From: Patescibacteria group bacterium UBA7435
GTDB lineage: Bacteria > Patescibacteriota > Minisyncoccia > Phycocordibacterales > UBA918
NCBI GenBank assembly: GCA_002477545.1
Contig: DLQJ01000007.1
Location: forward strand, 87,188-151,187
DNA length: 64,000 nucleotides
Direction: 5' to 3'
Part shown: positions 3,389 to 61,984 of the stretch, piece by piece
How positions within the stretch are numbered: the stretch's first letter is position 1
How the letters are laid out: every line of letters begins with the position of its first letter
Position numbers and translations under genes: made by a program
The notes under the pieces: model-generated
Seen by the model: the letters and a program-made list of their open reading frames with translations, nothing else
The model's database searches: none
Told to the model about the DNA's origin: nothing

Positions 3389-3823
3389 CTACAGGACGCC
3401 GATATCGCCAAGTTTCTCAGCAAGCTGATCTGCCTGTGCTTCGATACGTCGTTTGTATTCCTCCCATTGCTTCTCATCCCAAATTTCTACACGATCATGG
3501 ATTCCTGCAAGCGTGACTTTACCGTCAAGATTTGCGAATTCCTTTAAAAAATCTGGAACGAGAATACGTCCAACACTATCTACCTCGACTTCAACCGCTC
3601 CTGATAAGAAGAATCGATTAAAGCTTCTCGTATCCGATTGTCCCAGTGGCAACTGTCCGATTTTCTCGGTAATCACCTGCCACTGTTTCAATGGATATAC
3701 AAAGAGACAATTATCAAGACCTCGAGTAACTACAAGTTTTCTCCCAAGTTCCTTCCGCCACTTGGACGGCATGGACAGCCGTTTCTTAGGATCCAACGTA
3801 TGTTTGTATTCACCGATTAACAT
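3389..3823 (-). CDS. mraZ: transcriptional regulator MraZ
   Basis: 144 aa; tandem MraZ/SpoVT-AbrB-like halves; first gene of the dcw cluster. Confidence 0.9.
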   Translation of the reverse strand: MLIGEYKHTLDPKKRLSMPSKWRKELGRKLVVTRGLDNCLFVYPLKQWQVITEKIGQLPLGQSDTRSFNRFFLSGAVEVEVDSVGRILVPDFLKEFANLDGKVTLAGIHDRVEIWDEKQWEEYKRRIEAQADQLAEKLGDIGVL

Positions 3824-3930
3824 GTCTTGATAGTTTTGAGTTGGTCTGAAGACCTACTGCAATTAAGTGGAGTAAATTACAGAGGGTATTCAAACCAACT
3901 CATCCCTGTATACTCTATTTCAAGAGTATA

Positions 3931-4096: not shown

Positions 4097-4347
4097 CACC
4101 AAAGTACGAACATCTGCCATATCCCACCGGTAAAAAAATATGGCTAAAAACAAGGTTCACTTGGACATAAAAAAACACCCAACAATTGTCAGGTATCTGT
4201 ATAGAGCATTGTGCTCAATGGTAGTGCATGCGGGGGCAAGTTTCACCTATACCCCCATCATCAAGCAAAATTTTTGATCCAACGAAAAGTTAGATCAGTA
4301 TCTGAATTCGTCATAATGAACGATTCGCATGAGTTTGGGACTCATTT

Positions 4348-4590
4348 TTATCCTCCTTTTGTTTCACCGGACATGCCGGCTGTTTTAATAATGTGCATGC
4401 CGTTGTTGAAATCGGCACTGTCTATACCTCGTAGTGTGTGCGGTTCTTGCTGACTACCTTCGATGACAAGGTCATCTCCGGCGACAAGGTGTCCGTAAAA
4501 AAACGGATCCTCCTGGGCAAGTCGTTCCCGTTCCCAATCTGGAAGACCAGTGCTAAAACCATCCGTTGATTCCTGTACTGCAGTGATCAT
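4348..4590 (-). CDS. hypothetical protein (80 aa)
   Basis: ORF with a GGAG-like SD 8 nt upstream; the overlapping plus-strand ORF has no RBS. Confidence 0.4.
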   Translation of the reverse strand: MITAVQESTDGFSTGLPDWERERLAQEDPFFYGHLVAGDDLVIEGSQQEPHTLRGIDSADFNNGMHIIKTAGMSGETKGG

Positions 4591-4939: not shown

Positions 4940-5668
4940 TTACACTTTCGTTCTCTGTCCTCCAAAAAGGCGTGAGCTGGGGTCAGCATAGGCGATAATT
5001 TTTTGCAGATGGTCCACTGTGAAATTTGGCCACAAAACTTCAGTTGACACACACACTGATTGAACGGACTGTAGCGGAAGAAATGCTGAACCTCGCCATT
5101 GTGACATCCCGCCACTTGCTTCAGGCATACCGGTGCGAATAATTATGTCAGGTTCGTTCCCTGCTTCTGTATCTAAATGTGATTGTACGTATTGAGCAGT
5201 AACATCATCTGGGGAAATATCATTTTGTAGTGCGTTTTTTACCATGCGGGCAACTTCGTCCACCCCGTCGTAATTCAATGCAATTTGTAATAATGTTCCA
5301 CTATTAGAAACAGATCGACGTTCAGCATCCTCGGATGCAGCAAGTACTGCATCAGGTAATCCTGACCGATCTCCAATAAGCTTAAAACGAACACCATCAT
5401 CTATGAGCCCTTTTAGATGGGTTGTTAAAAATTGTAAAAATAAAATCCAAATGCCGTCCACCTCACTCTTGTCTCTTTTCCAGTTAGCAATAGCGAAAGC
5501 AAACACACTAAGTGTTTGTACTCTGTTTTCTGGGCAAGTCTTAATAAGACCAAGTAACGCCCGAACACCTTCAGCATGACCTTCAAGACGTTCTTTTCCT
5601 TGCTGTGTCGCCCAGCGACCATTTCCGTCGAGAATAATCCCCACATGCAGTCCTTTTTTGATTTCCAT
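4940..5668 (-). CDS. uppS: undecaprenyl diphosphate synthase
   Basis: 242 aa; N-terminal GIILDGNGRWA cis-prenyltransferase motif. Confidence 0.9.
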   Translation of the reverse strand: MEIKKGLHVGIILDGNGRWATQQGKERLEGHAEGVRALLGLIKTCPENRVQTLSVFAFAIANWKRDKSEVDGIWILFLQFLTTHLKGLIDDGVRFKLIGDRSGLPDAVLAASEDAERRSVSNSGTLLQIALNYDGVDEVARMVKNALQNDISPDDVTAQYVQSHLDTEAGNEPDIIIRTGMPEASGGMSQWRGSAFLPLQSVQSVCVSTEVLWPNFTVDHLQKIIAYADPSSRLFGGQRTKV

Positions 5669-5703
5669 ATTGCTCTTATAACAAACCTATTCTTAATAAA
5701 GTT

Positions 5704-5746
5704 ATAACAAAAGTGTGTAAGGGTAGTCCTTACACACTTTTGTTAT
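5704..5746 (-). terminator. hairpin terminator downstream of lysK
   Basis: 18-bp inverted repeat taacaaaagtgtgtaagg/ccttacacacttttgtta. Confidence 0.55.
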
Positions 5747-5755
5747 TGCATGTCT

Positions 5756-7339
5756 TTAGACAACACCGCGCAATCGCTCAAGTACAAAATCTTTATCAAG
5801 TGTACTCATAAACCATCCAACTTTAGGACCACTCTCTTTTCCTAGGAATAATAGATACAGCGCAGTAAAGAATTCTTTTGGGCTCAGCTCTGACTCTTCT
5901 TTCACTTGGTGCGTGAGCTCGTGAATCGCTTGACCATCCATTGTCTCAAGACTCTCTAGCTTATCTGCAAAAAGTTTGATGGCGTTCTTCTGATCATCAG
6001 TAAGCACTAAAGCGGTTTCTGGTACTGCTTCTTGTAGTGCAAAGATAAATCGATCTTCTGCATATTGCGCAAGCCAACGCTTTGCGTATTCGCTTCGCAG
6101 ATCAATCTCAGCACGATCTTCCTCTGTTAATGGAGCTTCTTTCATTTTTTCTACCTCTTCATAGATATCCATGTGTGGCATCTGTACCAAGAATGCAATC
6201 TGTGAGAATCGTGGGAGGAACCGTTTTGGAATATTCGCCCGTTCTTCCGGTAAGTGTGCAAACCTAAATACTTGTGAGTCATCGTCTTCTACCCCACTCC
6301 ATACTTTCTGTGCAAGTCGATCGTATGTATCAAACAATACCGGCACCGCGTCACCCTCAGGATCGAAGTCCAACTGGCGATTAATTGGCGTCTTCAAAAG
6401 AAGTAACCGTAGGATGTGCGGCGGCAGTAGTTCAGTCATTTCCTTTGCCGTTGCAGCATTCCCCTTTGATGAAGACATTTTCTTCCCTCCTACTAAGAAA
6501 AACTCATTAAATACACCATATGGTGGCTGGTGCTCAAGCACTTCACGAGAAATAGCTTCAGCGACTTGCCGTGCGCCTCCCTTAGAATAATGATCCTTAC
6601 CTCCTCCTTCAAAATGCACACCGTTAGCCATGAACTTCGCAGCCCATTCTGGCTTCCATGGAAGTGATGCGTTTCCATCAAATGGAGAGATTCGTCCATT
6701 GTGACCACAGCCCTCTGCCCATTCAATCGTGTCTGAAGAACAGGTGTAGTCCACCATTTCCCCGTCCCAGCCAGTAATACGCGTCGCACTAAGATTCCCA
6801 CAGTTTTCGCACACCACATTAAGTGGGTACCAATCAGCAGCTCGTTCGCTTCCTGAAACTTCTTTATAGATCTTGTGGATGATTTCTTTCTTATCAAGTA
6901 CTGCACGGATTGCATCATTCATACGTCCACTTCTGTAAAGCTCAGTAGCTCGATACACTTCTGCGCCAAATCCGATACGTCCCACTACTTCTACATACTC
7001 CTGTCCGTAGAGTTCAGCAAAATTCTCATACCCTTCTACTGGAGATGGAATTGAATACAGAGGATGTCCCATGTACTTTTTGTACTCAGCTTCGTCCAAG
7101 TAGCCCGGGATACCATCCATCGGATCAAAATCATTAATTTCAAAAAGAAACTTCACCTTAATCCCTCGATCGTTAAGCACGTCAGCAACGATCGCGTGCA
7201 GTGCTGCACTACGAAGTGACCCAACATGTACCTGTCCTGATGCAGTCTTTTCATCTCGTACAATAATAGGTTCGCCTGTATCAATAACATGCTGATATTT
7301 TCGTACTACCTCATCTGCAATTTTATCTGCCCAAAACAT
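5756..7339 (-). CDS. lysK: class I (archaeal-type) lysyl-tRNA synthetase
   Basis: N-terminus MFWADKIADE; HIGH-like HVGSLR; KMSSSKG (KMSKS); Cys cluster. Start moved to the internal Met (MFWADK) at 7339. Confidence 0.8.
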   Translation of the reverse strand: MFWADKIADEVVRKYQHVIDTGEPIIVRDEKTASGQVHVGSLRSAALHAIVADVLNDRGIKVKFLFEINDFDPMDGIPGYLDEAEYKKYMGHPLYSIPSPVEGYENFAELYGQEYVEVVGRIGFGAEVYRATELYRSGRMNDAIRAVLDKKEIIHKIYKEVSGSERAADWYPLNVVCENCGNLSATRITGWDGEMVDYTCSSDTIEWAEGCGHNGRISPFDGNASLPWKPEWAAKFMANGVHFEGGGKDHYSKGGARQVAEAISREVLEHQPPYGVFNEFFLVGGKKMSSSKGNAATAKEMTELLPPHILRLLLLKTPINRQLDFDPEGDAVPVLFDTYDRLAQKVWSGVEDDDSQVFRFAHLPEERANIPKRFLPRFSQIAFLVQMPHMDIYEEVEKMKEAPLTEEDRAEIDLRSEYAKRWLAQYAEDRFIFALQEAVPETALVLTDDQKNAIKLFADKLESLETMDGQAIHELTHQVKEESELSPKEFFTALYLLFLGKESGPKVGWFMSTLDKDFVLERLRGVV

Positions 7340-7394
7340 AATGTCGTTAGTGTAGCTAATAATAAGGGTTTTGCAAATGTATAGAAACAATAAA

Positions 7395-7428
7395 CAAAAG
7401 AACGGCGCCAAAGGCGCCGTTCTTTTGT
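7395..7428. terminator. bidirectional terminator (greA / lysK)
   Basis: caaaagaacggcgcc-aaa-ggcgccgttcttttg perfect inverted repeat. Confidence 0.8.
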
Positions 7429-7436
7429 TCTCAGAT

Positions 7437-7904
7437 CTAGTCGATCTTCAACAATTTATATTTCTGCTTCCCTCCTGGTGTCTCAAATTCAATCTCCTCT
7501 CCCTTCTCCTTCCCCATCAATGCTTCACCAAGTGGTGAGAGATATGACAGCTTCTTTGCATGAATGTCAGCTTCTTCTGACCCTACAATTGTGTAGCAGA
7601 TGTTTCCCTTCTCTCCTGTCTTTTGGATACACACTTCGTTTCCGAGTCCTACAACATCTGACTTACTGTTAGTTACAATCTTAGCTTCTTTCATTACCTG
7701 TTCAAGATGTGTAATTCGTTCCTCGATAGCAGCCTGCATATCTCGTGCTTCTTGGTATTCTGCATTTTCAGAAAGGTCTCCCAGACTTCGTGCATACTCC
7801 AGCGATTCAGCAACTTCTTTCCGGCGTACTGTTTTTAAGTTTTCTAACTCTGTCTTAAGCTCTTCGAACTTCTCTTTGGTCAAAAATTCTTGTGTGTCAT
7901 TCAT
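7437..7904 (-). CDS. greA: transcription elongation factor GreA
   Basis: 155 aa; conserved GreA N-terminal coiled coil and C-terminal FKBP-like domain. Confidence 0.9.
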   Translation of the reverse strand: MNDTQEFLTKEKFEELKTELENLKTVRRKEVAESLEYARSLGDLSENAEYQEARDMQAAIEERITHLEQVMKEAKIVTNSKSDVVGLGNEVCIQKTGEKGNICYTIVGSEEADIHAKKLSYLSPLGEALMGKEKGEEIEFETPGGKQKYKLLKID

Positions 7905-7971: not shown

Positions 7972-9669
7972 TTATTCGGTGAGATCTTCAGTGATTTCAA
8001 GATACTCTGGAGCATTCTCGTGAATCCAATCCATAATATCTCCCGCCAAAGTAGTACCTCCAAGACTATTACTGTACGGCGCGTTCTCCATAAGTACCAC
8101 AAAAGAATACTGGGGATCTTCGTATGGCCAGAAACCAGCTGCCCACGTGTTTAAACGTGATTTAGCAGAGTCCAACTCTGCAGTCCCCGACTTTGCAGCA
8201 ATTTTTACATAATCCTTCTCAAGTGACCGAGCGGTACCTCCAGCATAGTAGGTCGTCATATGCATTCCTTCACGTACGATATCAAGTGCCCAAGGATCGA
8301 GTGCAACTTCACGATATTCACCAACCTTTCCTTTCTCTACATGTGGCACAAAAAACTTTCCACCGTTTGCCAAACCACCATAGGCAACAAGCATCTGCAA
8401 CGGTGTCACCTGCCAACCATACTGACCGATTGAGGTGAAGTAGGTGTCTCCCAGACGCCAGTCATCATCGAAATGCTCCCGCTTCCAATCCGGATTTGGA
8501 ACGGTTCCTGACTGCTCGTTTGCCAAATCAACATTTGTTCGTTCTCCAAATCCAAAGAGTGAGAAATACGTATTTATTTTCATAATACCAAGACCCTCCT
8601 GATCACGAAACCCGCCTCCAATAATATAGAAATACACATTCGACGAAAACGCGATAGCTTCTTTCATGGTCATCTTTCCGTGCGCTCGCCAGTCTCGGAA
8701 GACCGATGGGTTATTTGGATTGTATGGATTTGGAATCACAATCTCCCCAGTACTGACAATTATCTTGTTTGGACTGATGACATCTTCAACAAGTGCAGCG
8801 TATGCAACAAATGGTTTCACAATAGAACCAGGAGTGTATACACCTGCAAGTACTTTATTAAGAAATGGGAATCGTTCATCTGTATTGTATTGTGCGATGA
8901 GGTCTATATCATCTCCATCGGCCATTACTTCTGGGTCATACGATGGATAGCTTGTCATGGCGATAATTTCACCAGTGTGGATGTCCATAATAGCTGCTGC
9001 ACCACTACGAGAACCTGATTGTGCTGTAGAGGTCGCAATGATGTCGTGCATCGCTTCAGAGAGCCGTACATCAAGCGAGAGAGTTAGTTCCTTACCTGAC
9101 TTTGGTTGTTCTACAATGTGTTCCCCAATTACTTCACCTAATGCATCGGTTTCAATGAGTTGTTGTCCATTTTTACCACTAAGTAGCTCATTAAATGAGG
9201 ACTCAACTCCATTGCGCCCAATGTATTCAGTACGGTAATAAAAACCTCTTTTATCTTTCAATGGATAACTTACATACCCTATAAGTTGCCCTAATCCATT
9301 ACGATCGGTGTATGCGCGCACAGGAAAAGAATACGCTCCGTCTTTATCAGGTTCATTCCATGCGAGCAATTCTCCATTACGGTCATACACTACACCTCGC
9401 TCGGCGATAATGACTGTTTCATCAAGACTATTATTTTCACTAATGTCCCTAAACTCTGCACCTTGGGTTATCTGCAAAAGAAATAACTTACTCAAAAACC
9501 ATAACGCGATAAGTACAAAAAGGACCGCAACAACACCAACGTTGTAGCTGGTAATAGGGAGTTCTTTTTTCCCCTCCATACGTCCTTGATTAAAGGAAGG
9601 TAAATTTGAAGAATCCAATAAAATTTCTTCAAAAGAAACATCTTTTTTGTTTTTTCGTTTCCAAAACAT
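7972..9669 (-). CDS. mrdA: penicillin-binding protein 2 (elongasome transpeptidase)
   Basis: 565 aa; TM anchor; SxxK (GSIVK), SSN, KSGT; follows mreB-mreC. Confidence 0.8.
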   Translation of the reverse strand: MFWKRKNKKDVSFEEILLDSSNLPSFNQGRMEGKKELPITSYNVGVVAVLFVLIALWFLSKLFLLQITQGAEFRDISENNSLDETVIIAERGVVYDRNGELLAWNEPDKDGAYSFPVRAYTDRNGLGQLIGYVSYPLKDKRGFYYRTEYIGRNGVESSFNELLSGKNGQQLIETDALGEVIGEHIVEQPKSGKELTLSLDVRLSEAMHDIIATSTAQSGSRSGAAAIMDIHTGEIIAMTSYPSYDPEVMADGDDIDLIAQYNTDERFPFLNKVLAGVYTPGSIVKPFVAYAALVEDVISPNKIIVSTGEIVIPNPYNPNNPSVFRDWRAHGKMTMKEAIAFSSNVYFYIIGGGFRDQEGLGIMKINTYFSLFGFGERTNVDLANEQSGTVPNPDWKREHFDDDWRLGDTYFTSIGQYGWQVTPLQMLVAYGGLANGGKFFVPHVEKGKVGEYREVALDPWALDIVREGMHMTTYYAGGTARSLEKDYVKIAAKSGTAELDSAKSRLNTWAAGFWPYEDPQYSFVVLMENAPYSNSLGGTTLAGDIMDWIHENAPEYLEITEDLTE

Positions 9670-9670
9670 A

Positions 9671-9931
9671 TTATTGTTGATACATCAGCAGATACGGTTT
9701 AAGTGCTTGGATACATAGAAGTCCCACCCCAGTTACAAGCGTATACACATACATTCCACTACCGCCATATCCAAAATATGCGTCAATTATTGCAGCAAGT
9801 ACAATCAACTCAATTCCTGCATACAAAAATGCGTAGATTACAGCGGATACAACAAATACGACAACAGGGCCAGTGAGGCCAAGCACCGCCACCAAAACAA
9901 AAAGTGAAAATTGTAATGCGTTATTCTTCAT
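9671..9931 (-). CDS. small polytopic membrane protein, possibly reduced MreD
   Basis: 86 aa, 3 TM helices; sits in the mreD position between mreC and PBP2. Confidence 0.3.
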   Translation of the reverse strand: MKNNALQFSLFVLVAVLGLTGPVVVFVVSAVIYAFLYAGIELIVLAAIIDAYFGYGGSGMYVYTLVTGVGLLCIQALKPYLLMYQQ

Positions 9932-10880
9932 TTTCTTCTTCAGTTACGTCACTGGTACTCGACGTGGTTGTCCCATTTTCTAAATCAACCAAAATCGTGT
10001 CTGGCACTGGCACCGTAAACAAATCAGACTTTATCTCAGTGAGAATTGCTTGTGCTTCTTCAAAAGAAACACTCTGTATTGGTGTGATTCCAACCGACAC
10101 TAAGCGGATACTCGACAGAGGAACCTCTGGCGAAACATAACCATACTGCTCTGGACGTGATGCTTCAGATTGCACCACACTCACTTCACCATACACTCCT
10201 GAAGTGATAGACGGGAGTACCACCAAATCACCTTCTGAAATCTCAATTCCTTGTGGTACTCCCACACGTAATTGTCCACCACCGATCCCTACAGCATTAG
10301 TGTAAATGTCAGGACCTATGATGTATACCGTTGCTTCAAAGCCGGCAGTTGTTGCAAGCTCCACAAGCGCACTGTGTGCTGTGGCATGCTTCACAATTCC
10401 AATGACCGTATTTTCTCCTATAAATACTGGAGCACCGGTGACTACACCCTCTTGCGTTCCTCGATCAATCATCAGGGTGTCGTAGGGCAAAACACCTGGT
10501 CTTCCAATTACTCCTGCAAGTACCCGTTGTTCTCCATGGTCTCCCAAAAGACCTCGTAATTCTTTATTTTCTTTTACTAATGTATTGAGTGTAAAAATAT
10601 CACCCCCGACAGTAGCAAGCTCTTGTCGCAAAGTATGTATCTCATCAACTAACTCAGTTCGGTTACGTAAATACATTGGCAAACTTCCACCTGACTCTGC
10701 AACCCACGTCTTTACACCATTTATTGGTGCCACAACAACACTAAATACTACATGGAGCGCTTTAGGCACGAGAAAAAGGAGCACAAGACAAACAAGCGTA
10801 GTAACTACTATGCGTGTGAGATTCTTATTCTGAGAGGTGCGGCGATAATTCCCCCTCGTTATCGACGAGAATTTCTTCAT
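9921..10880 (-). CDS. mreC: rod shape-determining protein MreC
   Basis: 319 aa; TM, coiled coil and beta-rich MreC domain; acidic C-terminal tail. Confidence 0.8.
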   Translation of the reverse strand: MKKFSSITRGNYRRTSQNKNLTRIVVTTLVCLVLLFLVPKALHVVFSVVVAPINGVKTWVAESGGSLPMYLRNRTELVDEIHTLRQELATVGGDIFTLNTLVKENKELRGLLGDHGEQRVLAGVIGRPGVLPYDTLMIDRGTQEGVVTGAPVFIGENTVIGIVKHATAHSALVELATTAGFEATVYIIGPDIYTNAVGIGGGQLRVGVPQGIEISEGDLVVLPSITSGVYGEVSVVQSEASRPEQYGYVSPEVPLSSIRLVSVGITPIQSVSFEEAQAILTEIKSDLFTVPVPDTILVDLENGTTTSSTSDVTEEENEE

Positions 10881-11898
10881 AATTGTCCAAGTTCTCTAAT
10901 ACAATACCAGTTCCACGAACAACTGCACGCAATGGGTCAGGCACAATATATACAGGCACCTGCATAACTTCTTGCAAAAGAGATGCTAGACCAGGAATAA
11001 GCGCTCCTCCTCCGGCGATATGAATACCTCGCTGCATTACATCAGCAAGTACTTCTGGAGGTGTTTTTTCAAGCACCGAACGCACCGCCTCAACAATCGA
11101 ATCAACCGAGTGTGAAATTGCTTCTTTAATATCAGTGTCAGTAATAATTACCTCACGCGGGAGTCCTGTTACTACGTCACGCCCGCGTACCACCATTTCC
11201 TTTTCTTCATCATGACTAATAGATGCAAGCATTACCTTCGCATCTTCAGCTGTCTTGTCTCCAACGAGCACTTTAAATTGATCTCTGATGTAACTGATAA
11301 TTGCAGCACTTAAATGATCTCCCGCCACTCGAAGATTTTTTGCAACCACAATTCCATTAAGTGAGATTACTGCAATGTCTGTATTCCCACCTCCTATGTC
11401 TATAATCATGTTTCCAATAGCCTTCCCAACAGGAAGCTTTGCACCAATAGCAGCAGCCATTGGTTCTTCAATTAAAAATACTTCACGTGCCCCAGCATTA
11501 CGAGCCGCATCGCGTGCCGCCCGCATCTCTACATTCGTAATTCCCGACGGAACGCCTACAAGTACACGAGGAGCGATAATACTACGCGTGTCACTACGCA
11601 CTTTATTAATAAAGTACGCAAGCATTTCTTCGGTTACTTCAAAGTCCGAGATCACTCCATCAACCAGTGGGCGAATCACTTGAATATGGTTTGGCGTGCG
11701 CCCCATCATAACTTTCGCTTCGTTACCCACTGCAACAAGTTGCCCTGTTTTTTTATTCATTGCAACGATCGTCGGTTCATTTAACACAATGCCTTTACCC
11801 TTTACATACACAAGTGTATTTGCTGTCCCAAGGTCAATACCAATATCAGTTGATACCGCTTCCACCATTCTATCTATGTGTTTGAGTATTTTTTTCAT
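10825..11898 (-). CDS. mreB: rod shape-determining protein MreB
   Basis: Actin-fold motifs GIDLGTANT, GIVLNEPT, DIGGGTT; start chosen at MKKILKH (11898), 10 nt after the proS stop. Confidence 0.9.
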   Translation of the reverse strand: MKKILKHIDRMVEAVSTDIGIDLGTANTLVYVKGKGIVLNEPTIVAMNKKTGQLVAVGNEAKVMMGRTPNHIQVIRPLVDGVISDFEVTEEMLAYFINKVRSDTRSIIAPRVLVGVPSGITNVEMRAARDAARNAGAREVFLIEEPMAAAIGAKLPVGKAIGNMIIDIGGGNTDIAVISLNGIVVAKNLRVAGDHLSAAIISYIRDQFKVLVGDKTAEDAKVMLASISHDEEKEMVVRGRDVVTGLPREVIITDTDIKEAISHSVDSIVEAVRSVLEKTPPEVLADVMQRGIHIAGGGALIPGLASLLQEVMQVPVYIVPDPLRAVVRGTGIVLENLDNYEEILVDNEGELSPHLSE

Positions 11899-25287: not shown

Positions 25288-25325
25288 AAAGACCCGAAAG
25301 TCGAAGACTTTCGGGTCTTTTGTTA
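25288..25325 (+). terminator. rho-independent terminator
   Basis: gacccgaaagtc-gaa-gactttcgggtc then TTTTGTT. Confidence 0.8.
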
Positions 25326-31730: not shown

Positions 31731-31803
31731 TCCGGCGTAGCTCAGCTGGTAGAGCAGTTGACTGTTAATCAATTTGTCGCAGGTTCGAGTCCTGCCGCCG
31801 GAG
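31731..31803 (+). tRNA. tRNA-Asn (GTT)
   Basis: Cloverleaf with 7-bp acceptor, D-arm GCTCAGCTGGTAGAGC, anticodon loop CTGTTAA, T-arm GCAGGTTCGAGTCCTGC; CCA not encoded. Confidence 0.9.
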
Positions 31804-31810
31804 CAACGAA

Positions 31811-31840
31811 AATGAGCCCCAATTACAGGGCTCATTTTTA
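31811..31840 (+). terminator. rho-independent terminator after the tRNA
   Basis: aatgagccc-caattaca-gggctcatt then TTTTA. Confidence 0.7.
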
Positions 31841-31860: not shown

Positions 31861-31901
31861 AACCTAAATGTATTGACATACGTTTAGGTTATATGTACAG
31901 T
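31861..31901 (+). promoter_or_regulatory. promoter with flanking 8-bp inverted repeat (possible operator)
   Basis: AACCTAAA...TTTAGGTT brackets TTGACA (31873-31878); 17 nt; TACAGT (31896-31901). Confidence 0.4.
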
Positions 31902-31958
31902 CTTGTTAGATTCAGCGATTTGCTGATGGAATACCGTTCAACAACAGGGGAATATACC

Positions 31959-32462
31959 ATGTTCAGATTTAGTCGTGACAAACGATTTTATTCCAGAATC
32001 TCATTCGAAGAGTTCTTTCAGGTGGCAACTACACTCGTAGCAATGGTCAAGAAAGCGAGGTCAAGTGCAATCGTAGAAATCCTTACGACCGAGGACACTC
32101 ACACCCACCTGTACTCGCAGGTCACCTTCATGGCAGACGAGGTCACTGAGGCGCTCAAGGGACGAAAGTCTTACTCACTCGAAGAATTCACCAATGAAGT
32201 CTATAGTCGTTCGATGAGTGTGCAATTGACACTCAAGGATGAAGCTGACTCGAAACCTTTTATGATTTGTCTTTCGCTGGACAAGGATGAGTCACGGAGT
32301 ATGAAGTTCTACGGACAAGCTGTTGAACAGGAACTCGTCAACCTCATCCACGACTCCTTCTCCAGCCCAAGCTTCTTCTACAAGGTTGGCGACGGCTATT
32401 CGAAGCCCTCGGCTTTCAACTTTGCTTTCGGTCAGAGACTCACAGGTATTCGCTTGAAGTAA
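31959..32462 (+). CDS. hypothetical protein
   Basis: ORF open from 31893; start chosen at the ATG with an AGGGG SD 8 nt upstream, because the -10 overlaps 31893. Confidence 0.45.
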   Translation: MFRFSRDKRFYSRISFEEFFQVATTLVAMVKKARSSAIVEILTTEDTHTHLYSQVTFMADEVTEALKGRKSYSLEEFTNEVYSRSMSVQLTLKDEADSKPFMICLSLDKDESRSMKFYGQAVEQELVNLIHDSFSSPSFFYKVGDGYSKPSAFNFAFGQRLTGIRLK

Positions 32463-32603
32463 GTCTCATAACATTATCCTCATCGCTCAGGCGGTGGGGT
32501 TTTTTACACCAGAACTCCATCATCTTGCAGGTCAGGAAGCATCACATTGATATCATTTTGAGCATAAAAAGTTCGAACAGCCTCAAAGGTCCGGAGCAAT
32601 ATA

Positions 32604-32628
32604 AAAGTCCCCTTTTGGGGGCTTTTTT
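32604..32628 (+). terminator. rho-independent terminator
   Basis: agtcccc-tttt-gggggct (one G.U) then TTTTTAC. Confidence 0.55.
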
Positions 32629-32645
32629 ACTTGTTCCGGCGGAGA

Positions 32646-32679
32646 AAGTGACTAAACGTCAGTTTCGCCAGGACTCGAA
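32646..32679 (+). repeat. bipartite motif copy 1 (AAGTGACTAAAC-N14-GACTCGAA)
   Basis: Identical 12-nt and 8-nt blocks with identical 14-nt spacing recur at 32985-33018; about 27 nt upstream of the small ORF. Confidence 0.6.
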
Positions 32680-32706
32680 AAGGTTGCCTGGCATTTTCTT
32701 TAGAAA

Positions 32707-32937
32707 ATGGCGACAACCTATACTGCGCCTGTGAAGCGAGAACCCTGCCCCCCATCGAAACAAGTAAAAGTAAAACATAGCCAGAAATCACAATTAATGT
32801 ATACTGCTGGCATGGCAAAACGATCAACAAAATTAACGCAAACATATGGGTCACGACATTCCCATAAAACAAAGAAGCGTCTAGAAACAAAATACGAAAT
32901 GCTTGCTGAAAAAGCGAGTAAAGGAAGCAAGAAGTAA
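32707..32937 (+). CDS. small Lys-rich basic protein (76 aa; or 46 aa from the internal ATG at 32799), unknown
   Basis: ORF with terminators on both sides; motif copy 1 upstream; no SD. Confidence 0.3.
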   Translation: MATTYTAPVKREPCPPSKQVKVKHSQKSQLMYTAGMAKRSTKLTQTYGSRHSHKTKKRLETKYEMLAEKASKGSKK

Positions 32938-32938
32938 G

Positions 32939-32972
32939 CTAAAACCACCGTTAGGGTGGTTTTTTCGTTTTG
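32939..32972 (+). terminator. rho-independent terminator
   Basis: aaccacc-gttag-ggtggtt then TTTTCGTTTT. Confidence 0.7.
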
Positions 32973-32984
32973 GATCCAGTGGAA

Positions 32985-33018
32985 AAGTGACTAAACACCA
33001 CCTTGACTAAGACTCGAA
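32985..33018 (+). repeat. bipartite motif copy 2 (AAGTGACTAAAC-N14-GACTCGAA)
   Basis: Second copy of the motif; no ORF follows before the terminator at 33071. Confidence 0.6.
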
Positions 33019-33070
33019 CCGACAATGAATGATACCGGCGAATACCCTGTACATAAATCATTGAAATAGT

Positions 33071-33108
33071 AAAAAGGGCTGCACATGTGCAGCCCTTTCT
33101 GTTTTTTA
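33071..33108. terminator. bidirectional terminator (phoH2 / putative short + strand transcript)
   Basis: agggctgcaca|tgtgcagccct perfect palindrome with T-tracts on both sides. Confidence 0.75.
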
Positions 33109-60053: not shown

Positions 60054-60321
60054 GCTTATAGTGTATCAGTAGAACCCTCTCTCGTTAGGACTCCCTGTGG
60101 GTACAAAATCTAACGGGCCAAGTTTCTAATTCATTATATTCATAAGAACTTCCTTTCTTACAGAAACTGTTTAGGTTGTCGCTCTGAAGATCTGGCAACC
60201 TCTTGCGAAAGTATTTTGATACTTTCTCACCCGGCCTCGACTGTTTTTATATTGTGAATAATAAAAACATGTCTCCGACTGTCAAAAGAGTCCAAAAGCA
60301 AAACTGTTTGCTTTCTAGAAT

Positions 60322-60351
60322 AAAACCTGAATTCGTATGAATTCAGGTTTT
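60322..60351. terminator. bidirectional terminator
   Basis: aaaacctgaattc-gtat-gaattcaggtttt. Confidence 0.75.
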
Positions 60352-60360
60352 ATTCTACTC

Positions 60361-61122
60361 TTACGACCTAATCTTCCATCCAATCTTAAATAGATGATTG
60401 ACCAGCGATGCCAGCCCAACAACCAATCCAATGATCAAGAATGCACCAAACGTAGTATCCGCTTCACTTACACCGATCATACTGCTACGAATACCATCTG
60501 CAAAGTAGAAAAATGGATTCCAAAGTGTAATTGTCTGAGCGACCTCTGGAAGCATTGTAATTGAGTAGAAAATACCACCTAAGTATGTCAGCGGTGTAAT
60601 TACAAACGTATTGAGTACTGTCAGCTGTTCAAAACTCTCAGCCCATAATGCGACGATCAATCCCAGCATAGAAAAGATCGCAGCAATTGCAGACACGTAG
60701 AGAATAAAGGCAATTGGGTTAACGAGTGTAACCGCGCCAAAGAAAAGTCCCGTGATAAGAATCAAGAATGCCACCATTAGTGAACGAGCGATTGATCCCG
60801 CAACAAATCCAAAGATCATCTCAAGATATGAAAATGGCGCGATCAAAATCTCCTCAAGTCCTCGTGTAAAGCGCATAAAGTACAGCGAAGATGATGCACT
60901 AGAGAATGATGCATTAATAATTGAGAGCATCAAAACCCCCGGAAATACAAAGGAGATGTATGGCACTCCCGCAATACTATCAATTTTTGATCCAATAACT
61001 GTTCCAAAAATAAAAATGTACAGCGCTGCTGAGATTACCGGTGCAATCAATGTTTGTACAACCACACGGAATGTCCTTTGTACCTCACGTCGAATCATCG
61101 TGTATAAGCCTATTCCATTCAT
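60361..61122 (-). CDS. ABC-2 type transporter permease
   Basis: 253 aa, 6 TM; 2 nt after the ATPase gene. Confidence 0.7.
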   Translation of the reverse strand: MNGIGLYTMIRREVQRTFRVVVQTLIAPVISAALYIFIFGTVIGSKIDSIAGVPYISFVFPGVLMLSIINASFSSASSSLYFMRFTRGLEEILIAPFSYLEMIFGFVAGSIARSLMVAFLILITGLFFGAVTLVNPIAFILYVSAIAAIFSMLGLIVALWAESFEQLTVLNTFVITPLTYLGGIFYSITMLPEVAQTITLWNPFFYFADGIRSSMIGVSEADTTFGAFLIIGLVVGLASLVNHLFKIGWKIRS

Positions 61123-61877: not shown

Positions 61878-61984
61878 GGTAGTAGTATAGCAAAAAAGTA
61901 TCTGGGCGCATCTATGGAGAATTTCTACAGTGATTAGTTTGTTTGATTGACTTTCATTCACTTAAAACGCATAGTTCCTAGACT

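Follow-up and report, generated by a model that had tools for sequence, protein, structure and literature searches.

Behind the only tRNA gene, tRNA-Asn(GTT), of a 64,000-nt stretch of contig DLQJ01000007.1 from Patescibacteria group bacterium UBA7435 (the whole stretch is called the window below) lies a variable gene island. In order, it comprises ORF189, an open reading frame (ORF) without a Pfam family, a tRNA-3′-end-like remnant with a terminator, a structured unit (X1), a cassette encoding a 41-aa protein, a second unit (X2) and a terminator shared with a PIN-PhoH gene (Table 1). An original prediction had drawn attention to a bipartite motif that occurs twice at this place. Both motif copies turn out to be left-hand portions of a structured, tRNA-linked module, X, which is present here in two copies and in which a tRNA segment occurs in the order sense, antisense, sense. 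X1 is a good unit and X2 a decayed one.

Table 1. Positions of the features of the island and of related elements within the window
Feature	Position	Strand	Basis or remark
tRNA-Asn(GTT), sole tRNA in the window	31731–31804	+	ARAGORN; Rfam tRNA, 72 bits
T-loop-to-3′-end segment of tRNA-Asn, TTCGAGTCCTGCCGCCGGAGCA, copied in antisense in the modules			Sequence
Native tRNA-Asn terminator, 'empty' state	31812–31840	+	Sequence; homology to L008 249–311
ORF189 (189 aa), accessory island gene between tRNA and modules	31893–32462	+	Absent from the equivalent place in L008
Degenerate tRNA-3′-end-like remnant GTTCGAAC...CCGGAGCA, left palindrome arm	32571–32598	+	Conserved in L008 and L005; fold
Terminator hairpin, center of the remnant/antisense-arm palindrome	32603–32626	+	Hairpin search; fold
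X1 antisense arm B, TTCCGGCGG, complement of the tRNA-Asn acceptor 3′ strand	32634–32642	+	Arms B and A together, 19/21
X1 hairpin P1; block 1 (32646–32657) is its 5′ arm and loop TAAAC	32644–32666	+	RNAalifold; covariation
X1 antisense arm A, CCAGGACTCGAA, complement of T-loop and T-stem 3′ strand; block 2 is 32672–32679	32668–32679	+	
X1 hairpin P2	32681–32719	+	Consensus fold; covariation
X1 junction (T)ATACTG and small hairpin P3, loop TGTGA	32719–32738	+	Covariation; −10-like TATACT at 32719
Decayed direct copy of the tRNA-Asn 3′ end, GAGAACCCTGCCCCCCATCG, 3′ arm/att-like remnant of X1	32738–32757	+	Sequence comparison
Whole X1 unit	32636–32760	+	Covariance model, 105.4 bits, E = 4e-25
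41-aa Lys-rich leaderless ORF, separate small cassette	32812–32937	+	TATACT box at 32800
Terminator preceding X2	32941–32963	+	Hairpin search
X2, decayed unit	~32975–33060	+	Covariance model, only 8.6 bits, E = 2
Bidirectional terminator, ends the PIN-PhoH gene on the − strand	33073–33098	.	Hairpin search; gene calls
Z, arm-less relative (P1-P2-P3 core only) in a hairpin mosaic between two genes	60135–60234	−	34.6 bits, E = 5e-7

The motif, AAGTGACTAAAC-N14-GACTCGAA, is present on the + strand at 32646–32679 and 32985–33018 with no mismatches, so that the claim of identical blocks at an identical 14-nt spacing was borne out. Allowing up to three mismatches still gave two matches, against a shuffle expectation of 0.01 (none of 100 dinucleotide shuffles gave two). 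Block 1 taken singly, with up to two mismatches, recurs in the rest of the window about as often as chance predicts (9 matches versus 8 expected). Searching for further copies, as the prediction had suggested, found none other in the 64 kb; most of the homologous units known from elsewhere sit behind tRNA genes.

Copy 1 and copy 2 have unrelated 14-nt spacers. That of copy 1 is the 3′ arm of hairpin P1, of which block 1 is the 5′ arm and loop; copy 2 has lost this arm. Block 2 is the antisense of the T-loop of the local tRNA and forms the 5′ strand of a long-range helix, P4. The likeness of its reverse complement to the tRNA-Asn T-loop had been mentioned as a secondary remark. It is correct, the joined arms of copy 1 matching tRNA-Asn at 19 of 21 nt, and it proved to be the key to the structure of the module. 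X2 retains block 1 (32985–32996) and block 2 (33011–33018) intact, together with an arm B′, TCCAGTGG, that agrees with X1 at six of eight positions. Its P1 3′ arm is lost and P2, the junction and P3 are vestigial (ATACCCTGTACA); its covariance score of just 8.6 bits identifies copy 2 as a decayed unit.

Intrinsic-terminator-like hairpins precede both copies, as had been stated. A hairpin also follows copy 2 as described, but it is bidirectional and ends the PIN-PhoH gene, and it would not belong to a transcript started by the motif.

Structure and distribution of the X units

Motif scans of a one-genome-per-species collection returned three contigs, and scans of metagenome contigs returned four true relatives (two sequences) and three further matches (L006, L009 and L010) that lie within unrelated sequence and were judged to be chance. 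The exact motif had no match in viral contigs. There, the core pattern recovered a true unit, L018, and a chance match, L017, while the junction/P3 pattern gave 23 loci, all of them chance except L018. A phage similarity search of the region matched tRNA-Asn only. Four more genomes (L042–L045) were compared around the gene for the CCA-adding enzyme. A covariance model built from eight units finds 22 units across the ~196 kb of sequence examined. In most relatives, and in all loci with a tRNA gene, the motif lies just 3′ of a tRNA gene and a terminator, on the same strand. As judged by the motif scans and the covariance model, homologous units adjoin tRNA-Asn, Arg, Gln, Ser and Gly.

Homologues of the neighboring CCA-adding enzyme are labeled Candidatus Kaiserbacteria or Pacebacteria by their sources, which places the lineage within the candidate phyla radiation (CPR). 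On this sequence evidence the X family is assigned to Kaiserbacteria/Pacebacteria-like CPR genomes. The contigs L001 (JBLIMJ010000004.1) and L003 (JBLHQB010000031.1) are filed under Acidimicrobiales and Patiriisocius metagenome-assembled genomes. Their genes are 85–100% identical to the Kaiserbacteria/Pacebacteria-labeled CCA-enzyme family, and the filed labels are probably binning errors.

An X unit is ~125 nt long. The order of parts is S (the tRNA 3′ end), a terminator, S* split by P1, a core, a direct S and the native flank. S comprises the T-loop, the T-stem 3′ strand and the acceptor 3′ strand; S* is its antisense, present as arms B and A. The core, similar among the compared units, consists of P2, a junction nnAC(T/A)G and P3 with the loop TGTAA.

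The consensus fold of eight units (MAFFT alignment, RNAalifold) has 34 pairs, 21 of which show compensatory changes. In this alignment 91.5% of cells are paired, compared with 72.1% in shuffles, and none of 500 shuffles reached the observed values. Sliding the partners by 1–3 columns left at most eight compensatory pairs. The helices are P1 (9 bp), the long-range P4, the long P2 and P3 (5 bp, with the loop TGTAA in most units). Compensatory changes affect five of nine pairs in P1, nine of 13 in P2 and all five in P3, and the C/T of GGAYTCGAA in arm A is matched by a covarying G/A in the 3′ arm (four units with CG, three with UA). In other units the sequence of block 1 is replaced and the hairpin is kept, as in the P1 variants AACAGTC-TGGGA-GACTGTT, AGATGC-TGGGA-GCAT(G/T)T, AGTGCC-CTAC-GGCACT, AGCTTTGC-GTTA-GCAAAGC, ACAAGC-TGAG-AGCTTGT and AGTAT-CAAA-ATACT. 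Minimum free energy folds show the shared architecture in most of 11 folded units. Over the helices of 21 distinct units, 598 pairs are Watson–Crick, 17 G-T, 8 A-C and 18 other.

Scans against Rfam 15 at gathering and permissive thresholds (window, L001, L003, L008 and L018) found no family for X or Z, and neither ARAGORN nor the Rfam tRNA model recognized any X unit as a tRNA, reporting true tRNAs only. Derivation of P1 from an anticodon arm was considered and dropped, as its likeness to tRNA-Asn appeared in one weak model alignment and P1 belongs to the shared core whichever tRNA adjoins. The same origin for P3 was rejected on account of the covariation of its loop-closing pairs.

Arms, palindromes and occupied sites

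The arms of a unit follow the tRNA gene beside it. Reverse complements of A and B, joined, reproduce the T-loop-to-3′-end segment of the adjacent tRNA at 18–21 of 19–21 nt in eight of ten units. The match is 19/19 for tRNA-Ser (L018), 18/19 for tRNA-Gly (L003) and 21/21 for tRNA-Arg in each of L001, L003 and L043; in L044 it is 21/21 for the tRNA at the 5′ end and 18/21 for tRNA-Arg. Block 2 changes with the T-loop, reading ACTCGAA for TTCGAGT, ATTCGAA for TTCGAAT and AATCGAA for TTCGATT, and it is AATCGGA where an unusual tRNA-Gly has the T-loop TCCGATT. In all ten units the antisense arms match the tRNA at least as well as the unit's own downstream copy, and in seven they match it better (19 versus 8 in X1 of the window; 21 versus 6 in L043).

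P3 is followed by a direct copy of the tRNA segment, 17–21 nt long and starting within the T-loop. Measured from the tRNA end, the geometry is fixed: B lies between +36 and +46, A between +70 and +77 and the direct S between +147 and +175. Neither phage tRNAs nor unoccupied ones show this arrangement. The possibility of att-like remnants had also been raised in the prediction, and direct repeats of the tRNA 3′ end (17–21 nt) do flank inserted DNA in homologous units.

The terminator is the center of a longer inverted repeat. Its left side is the tRNA 3′ end with the trailer; its right side is the spacer with B and then, past P1, A. From T-loop to A the sequence folds as one giant hairpin, with predicted energies of −85.8 kcal/mol for the Arg unit of L003 and −86.9 kcal/mol for L043 and with 38–39 uninterrupted Watson–Crick pairs. 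Orthologous Arg units differ between lineages at several positions, each difference being mirrored on both arms of the palindrome.

Filled and empty sites were found for the same tRNA genes. No unit occupies the tRNA-Arg site of L042 and L045, but the site is filled in L001, L003, L043 and L044, the last with two units. At tRNA-Asn, the window has an empty site and L008 a filled one; in the latter, a divergent tRNA-Asn with a terminator and an X core precedes a remnant and flank homologous to the tRNA-Asn 3′ end and terminator of the window. At the start of L044, a 171-nt unit is present twice, as a perfect tandem pair. At tRNA-Gly of L043 the layout S-terminator-S*(P1)-S recurs with 21-nt perfect direct repeats, but around a different core. 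The arm-less core has an empty site as well, CGGGGAG^GAAGTTCTTA in L042 and L044, with the core present in L003 and in the window.

The mosaic that holds Z in the window (60135–60400, − strand) consists of a terminator, AAGCAAAC..GTTTTGCTT, TGTTTTTAT..ATAAAAACA, the arm-less P1-P2-P3 core and TTAGAAACTTGG. Flanks 3′ of tRNA genes in L003, L042 and L044 are homologous to it; those of L042 and L044 lack the core.

Variable genes are found between the units. In the window this cargo is ORF189; in L008 it includes an APH-type kinase and a 495-aa protein. In L007, an alcohol dehydrogenase and a 75-aa membrane protein lie between the unit and the small-ORF cassette.

In L042 and L044, the tRNA-Arg gene beside the CCA-adding enzyme gene (~9460–9900 in L042–L045) is directed toward the latter; in L043, L045, L001 and L003 it is directed away. 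The difference represents a small inversion or a replacement of the tRNA gene among related genomes.

Insertion module, RNA or by-product of replication

The favored explanation is that X is a module acting at the level of DNA, by insertion or recombination. It would form the boundary of small gene cassettes, insert at tRNA 3′ ends and duplicate S as it does so. The chances that this is right are put at about even (0.5). A DNA-level role is favored because a strong terminator stands between the tRNA and the unit, in an interval without a recurrent promoter, and because the best-kept complementarity crosses the terminator and the non-tRNA trailer as perfect palindromes free of wobble pairs. It is also favored because units come and go, duplicate in tandem and swap cores among the sampled related genomes, and because direct repeats of the tRNA 3′ end border inserted DNA. 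Such repeats around inserted DNA are a classical sign of site-specific insertion.

In the proposed mechanism, S and S* would pair when single-stranded to give a long hairpin, with the terminator as its cap and P1 as a central branch. This hairpin could mimic a duplex target, as does the folded attP of the CTX phage or the attC of integrons, and a recombinase supplied in trans would perform the exchange. The antisense arms would be re-matched to each tRNA. Repeated insertion and decay would have produced the variable island behind tRNA-Asn, in which X1 and X2 would be non-autonomous relics giving neither a transcript start for the small ORF nor a 70–90-nt RNA. The full proposal, that recombinase-less mini-cassettes of CPR bacteria insert at tRNA 3′ ends via a single-stranded sense/antisense hairpin with P1 as the exchange point and with arms re-templated for each tRNA, and so build islands of accessory genes, is speculative and rather unlikely to be right; it would make X a counterpart of the CTX attP or the integron attC that is directed at tRNA genes.

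Several observations weigh against the insertion module. Neither an excised or circular form nor a single-stranded intermediate was observed. How the arms come to fit each new tRNA, with a core that hardly changes, is not accounted for by the model. No recombinase is consistently linked to the units; none is encoded near those of the window and none in most loci. The IS200-like (Y1_Tnp) gene of L008 has flanking inverted repeats of its own, of a different, GGGGACAGGGACAAT type. The mild + strand excess of G-T over A-C in the pair counts (17 versus 8, in a model-fitted alignment) and the conserved loops would suit an RNA as well. Some units carry a −10-like TATACT in the junction, and some promoter activity is possible on that sequence evidence. 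Finally, the sample is small (~22 units) and was in part selected through the motif itself.

In favor of the insertion module, a large serine recombinase and ParB are encoded ~290 nt from the unit in L018. This recombinase was examined as a general partner of X and rejected, matching itself alone in viral contigs and being absent from the other loci. The two genes (8112–10618) adjoin another tRNA-Ser-like gene, which has an odd anticodon (ACT). Nearby are a tRNA 3′ remnant ending in CCA and followed by an antisense T-loop (~10420–10468) and a 17-nt 5′ fragment of tRNA-Ser (~11020–11036). The same contig, from IMG/VR, contains a match to LOOT RNA on the − strand at 4313–4434 (56.3 bits; Rfam gathering score 46.4).

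A structured non-coding RNA resembling a tRNA minihelix is a possible, if somewhat improbable, alternative to insertion. It would have acceptor-like and T-like stems, with P1 standing where a tRNA has its D and anticodon arms and P2/P3 substituting for the T-loop. Such an RNA might be read through from the tRNA gene, might be processed by tRNA enzymes, or might have the tRNA 3′ end or trailer as its target in cis. The strong covariation in four helices, the conserved loops and junction and the similar minimum free energy folds of most of the 11 units are consistent with this reading, as are the G-T excess and the identity of the outer stems with the acceptor and T stems of the neighboring tRNA. 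Nevertheless, a strong intrinsic terminator stands ~8–20 nt before most examined units, with no recurrent promoter between. The antisense arms match the tRNA across this terminator better than they match the unit's own 3′ arm, and the complementarity runs on through the tRNA trailer as perfect 38–39-bp palindromes without wobble pairs. X has no Rfam family, and presence or absence of units, tandem copies and variable cores point to rearrangement of DNA.

It is unlikely that X is a functionless by-product of template switching during replication, with terminator hairpins behind tRNA genes growing outward as palindromes and thereby copying the tRNA 3′ end in antisense. On this account sense/antisense/sense triplications of the tandem-inversion-duplication type would be formed, inherited and then decay. 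The sense–antisense–sense order would follow, as would long perfect palindromes centered on terminators with differences mirrored on both arms; template switching between inverted-repeat arms is reported to homogenize and expand them (PMC8604942; PMC13100816). Nevertheless, a homologous core recurs behind five tRNA species, and arm-less elsewhere, with compensatory changes. Template switching also leaves unexplained the fixed geometry and the constant splitting of the antisense copy by P1 near the acceptor/T-stem boundary.

That X and Z are palindromes like those of repetitive extragenic palindromic (REP) or REPIN elements, mobilized by a RAYT (an IS200-like Y1 transposase), is very improbable. 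The elements are interspersed, intergenic and hairpin-forming, they occur as hairpin mosaics, and in L008 a Y1_Tnp gene lies between two X units. This gene (5100–5950) and a second copy truncated after 30 codons (7000–7450) are unrelated to the X units; both are flanked by the GGGGACAGGGACAAT repeats, and the two copies share sequence only from there. A RAYT as mobilizer was rejected on these grounds and on the absence of a Y1 gene from the other loci and the window. Moreover, an X unit has ~125 nt, three or four helices and tRNA-specific arms, and is not a tagged palindrome of 20–40 nt.

Least credible is the proposal with which the motif was first described, an alternative-sigma −35/−10 element or bipartite transcription-factor site driving the small ORF and a 70–90-nt RNA: both blocks and their spacing are exactly conserved in the window despite a differing spacer, and both copies follow terminators, but there are just two copies in 64 kb, the sequence of both blocks varies freely in homologues (that of block 1 within a hairpin arm, that of block 2 in step with the local T-loop), and the small ORF, like other genes of this genome, has a TATACT box of its own.

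Leaderless genes and comparison with known systems

At least nine real genes of the window have TATACT 6–9 nt before the start codon. Boxes of this kind are associated, for example, with genes at 25324, 35787, 39017 and 42174 on the + strand and at 61889, 45185, 41984, 31121, 17463 and 15822 on the − strand. At this distance from the ATG there is no room for a ribosome-binding site, which points to leaderless mRNAs; the organism appears to use them widely.

A small Lys-rich ORF does lie behind copy 1, as had been claimed, but probably not in the predicted 76-aa form. The 76-aa frame (32707–32937) starts inside P2 and overlaps the P2/P3 part of the module. TATACT-N6-ATG, with the box at 32800, gives 41 aa instead, and this promoter and start are conserved in L007 without an adjacent motif. 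From these sequence features, the better gene model is a 41-aa leaderless ORF that is not driven by the motif. Assemblies differ in calling it 76 or 41 aa. The 41-aa sequence and a 457-aa NCBI protein (P0009) belong to one 90% cluster, which seems to be a quirk of annotation.

In many X units the junction reads GGTATACTG and so carries TATACT, the −10 box of the lineage. An outward promoter was considered as the function of the element and rejected. Many units read GTGTAC, AAACAG or GCACAG at this place; these lack the essential second-position A or the final T, so that promoter activity is not a conserved feature.

Among known systems, tRNA-targeting integrative elements share with X the 17–21-nt direct repeats of the tRNA 3′ end, beginning in the T-loop and leaving the tRNA intact. 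Decayed remnants and accessory genes likewise pile up downstream, and one unit (L018) has a serine recombinase beside it. X differs in that the insert can be as short as ~150–170 nt and that an integrase is missing in most units, and in possessing a P1-split antisense copy of the repeat, a conserved folded core and tRNA-specific arms.

The attP of CTX, an integrative mobile element exploiting Xer (IMEX), and the attC sites of integrons resemble X in having inverted target-like copies that can fold to a duplex-mimicking hairpin with a variable branched center. Compensatory changes in stems, cassette-like arrays of small genes and the lack of a recombinase gene in most units are further similarities. 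The target of X, on the other hand, would be a tRNA gene and not dif or attI; no link to IntI or Xer is shown for X, and its single-stranded intermediate is purely conjectural. Reading of the sequence for the attC R boxes (RYYYAAC...GTTRRRY) showed that ACTAAAC does not conform to RYYYAAC and found no GTTRRRY at the 3′ end of the unit. With these defining boxes missing, an integron attC was rejected; X likewise lacks dif-like XerC/D arms.

REP sequences, bacterial interspersed mosaic elements (BIMEs) and miniature inverted-repeat transposable elements (MITEs, such as Correia elements) are also short, non-coding, multi-copy mosaics of intergenic hairpins after terminators. They too have promoter-like boxes in some copies and show insertion/deletion polymorphism. 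The terminal inverted repeats of X, however, are copied from the neighboring tRNA and are not constant, and there is no target duplication of fixed length. X has no GTAG or CGTC tags, and the only RAYT seen carries other repeats. With tRNA minihelices and tRNA-like RNAs, X shares outer helices equal to the acceptor and T-stem of its neighbor and a hairpin in the place of the D/anticodon arm; it differs in that its T-loop is antisense and a terminator insulates it from the tRNA promoter.

[quoted passage not shown] The X units have no such periodicity or boxes, and no Nop-domain match was found among the scanned neighbors, so that this candidate was rejected. T-box elements, H/ACA-like guides, IS110 bridge RNAs and group II introns were set aside on a reading of the sequence, short of a formal test.

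X fails the defining features of its nearest relatives among known systems: it lacks an integrase, R boxes and constant ends or tags. Full-text literature searching found no description of the X arrangement. To our knowledge, little has been reported on mobile DNA in the tiny genomes of CPR/Patescibacteria, and their gain of accessory genes is poorly understood. If X is a DNA module, it would be a candidate vehicle for gene flux in the CPR and would add a new case of folded DNA mimicking a target. Should it be an RNA instead, it would represent a new tRNA-linked class absent from Rfam. As to annotation, a false promoter and small-RNA call is removed, the 76-aa ORF is corrected to a 41-aa leaderless gene and the tRNA-like fragments at this locus are flagged as parts of a module.

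Two further observations concern tRNA genes of the compared loci. Between tRNA-Arg and the CCA-enzyme gene, L001 encodes a 352-aa protein with five 'integrase repeat unit' (PF14882) repeats (645–1703, + strand); the protein is absent from this place in L003. In L002, a truncated extra tRNA-Gln (3790–3880, − strand) lies directly upstream of an intact tRNA-Gln; its anticodon region holds an insertion, and the sequence stops within the T-loop.

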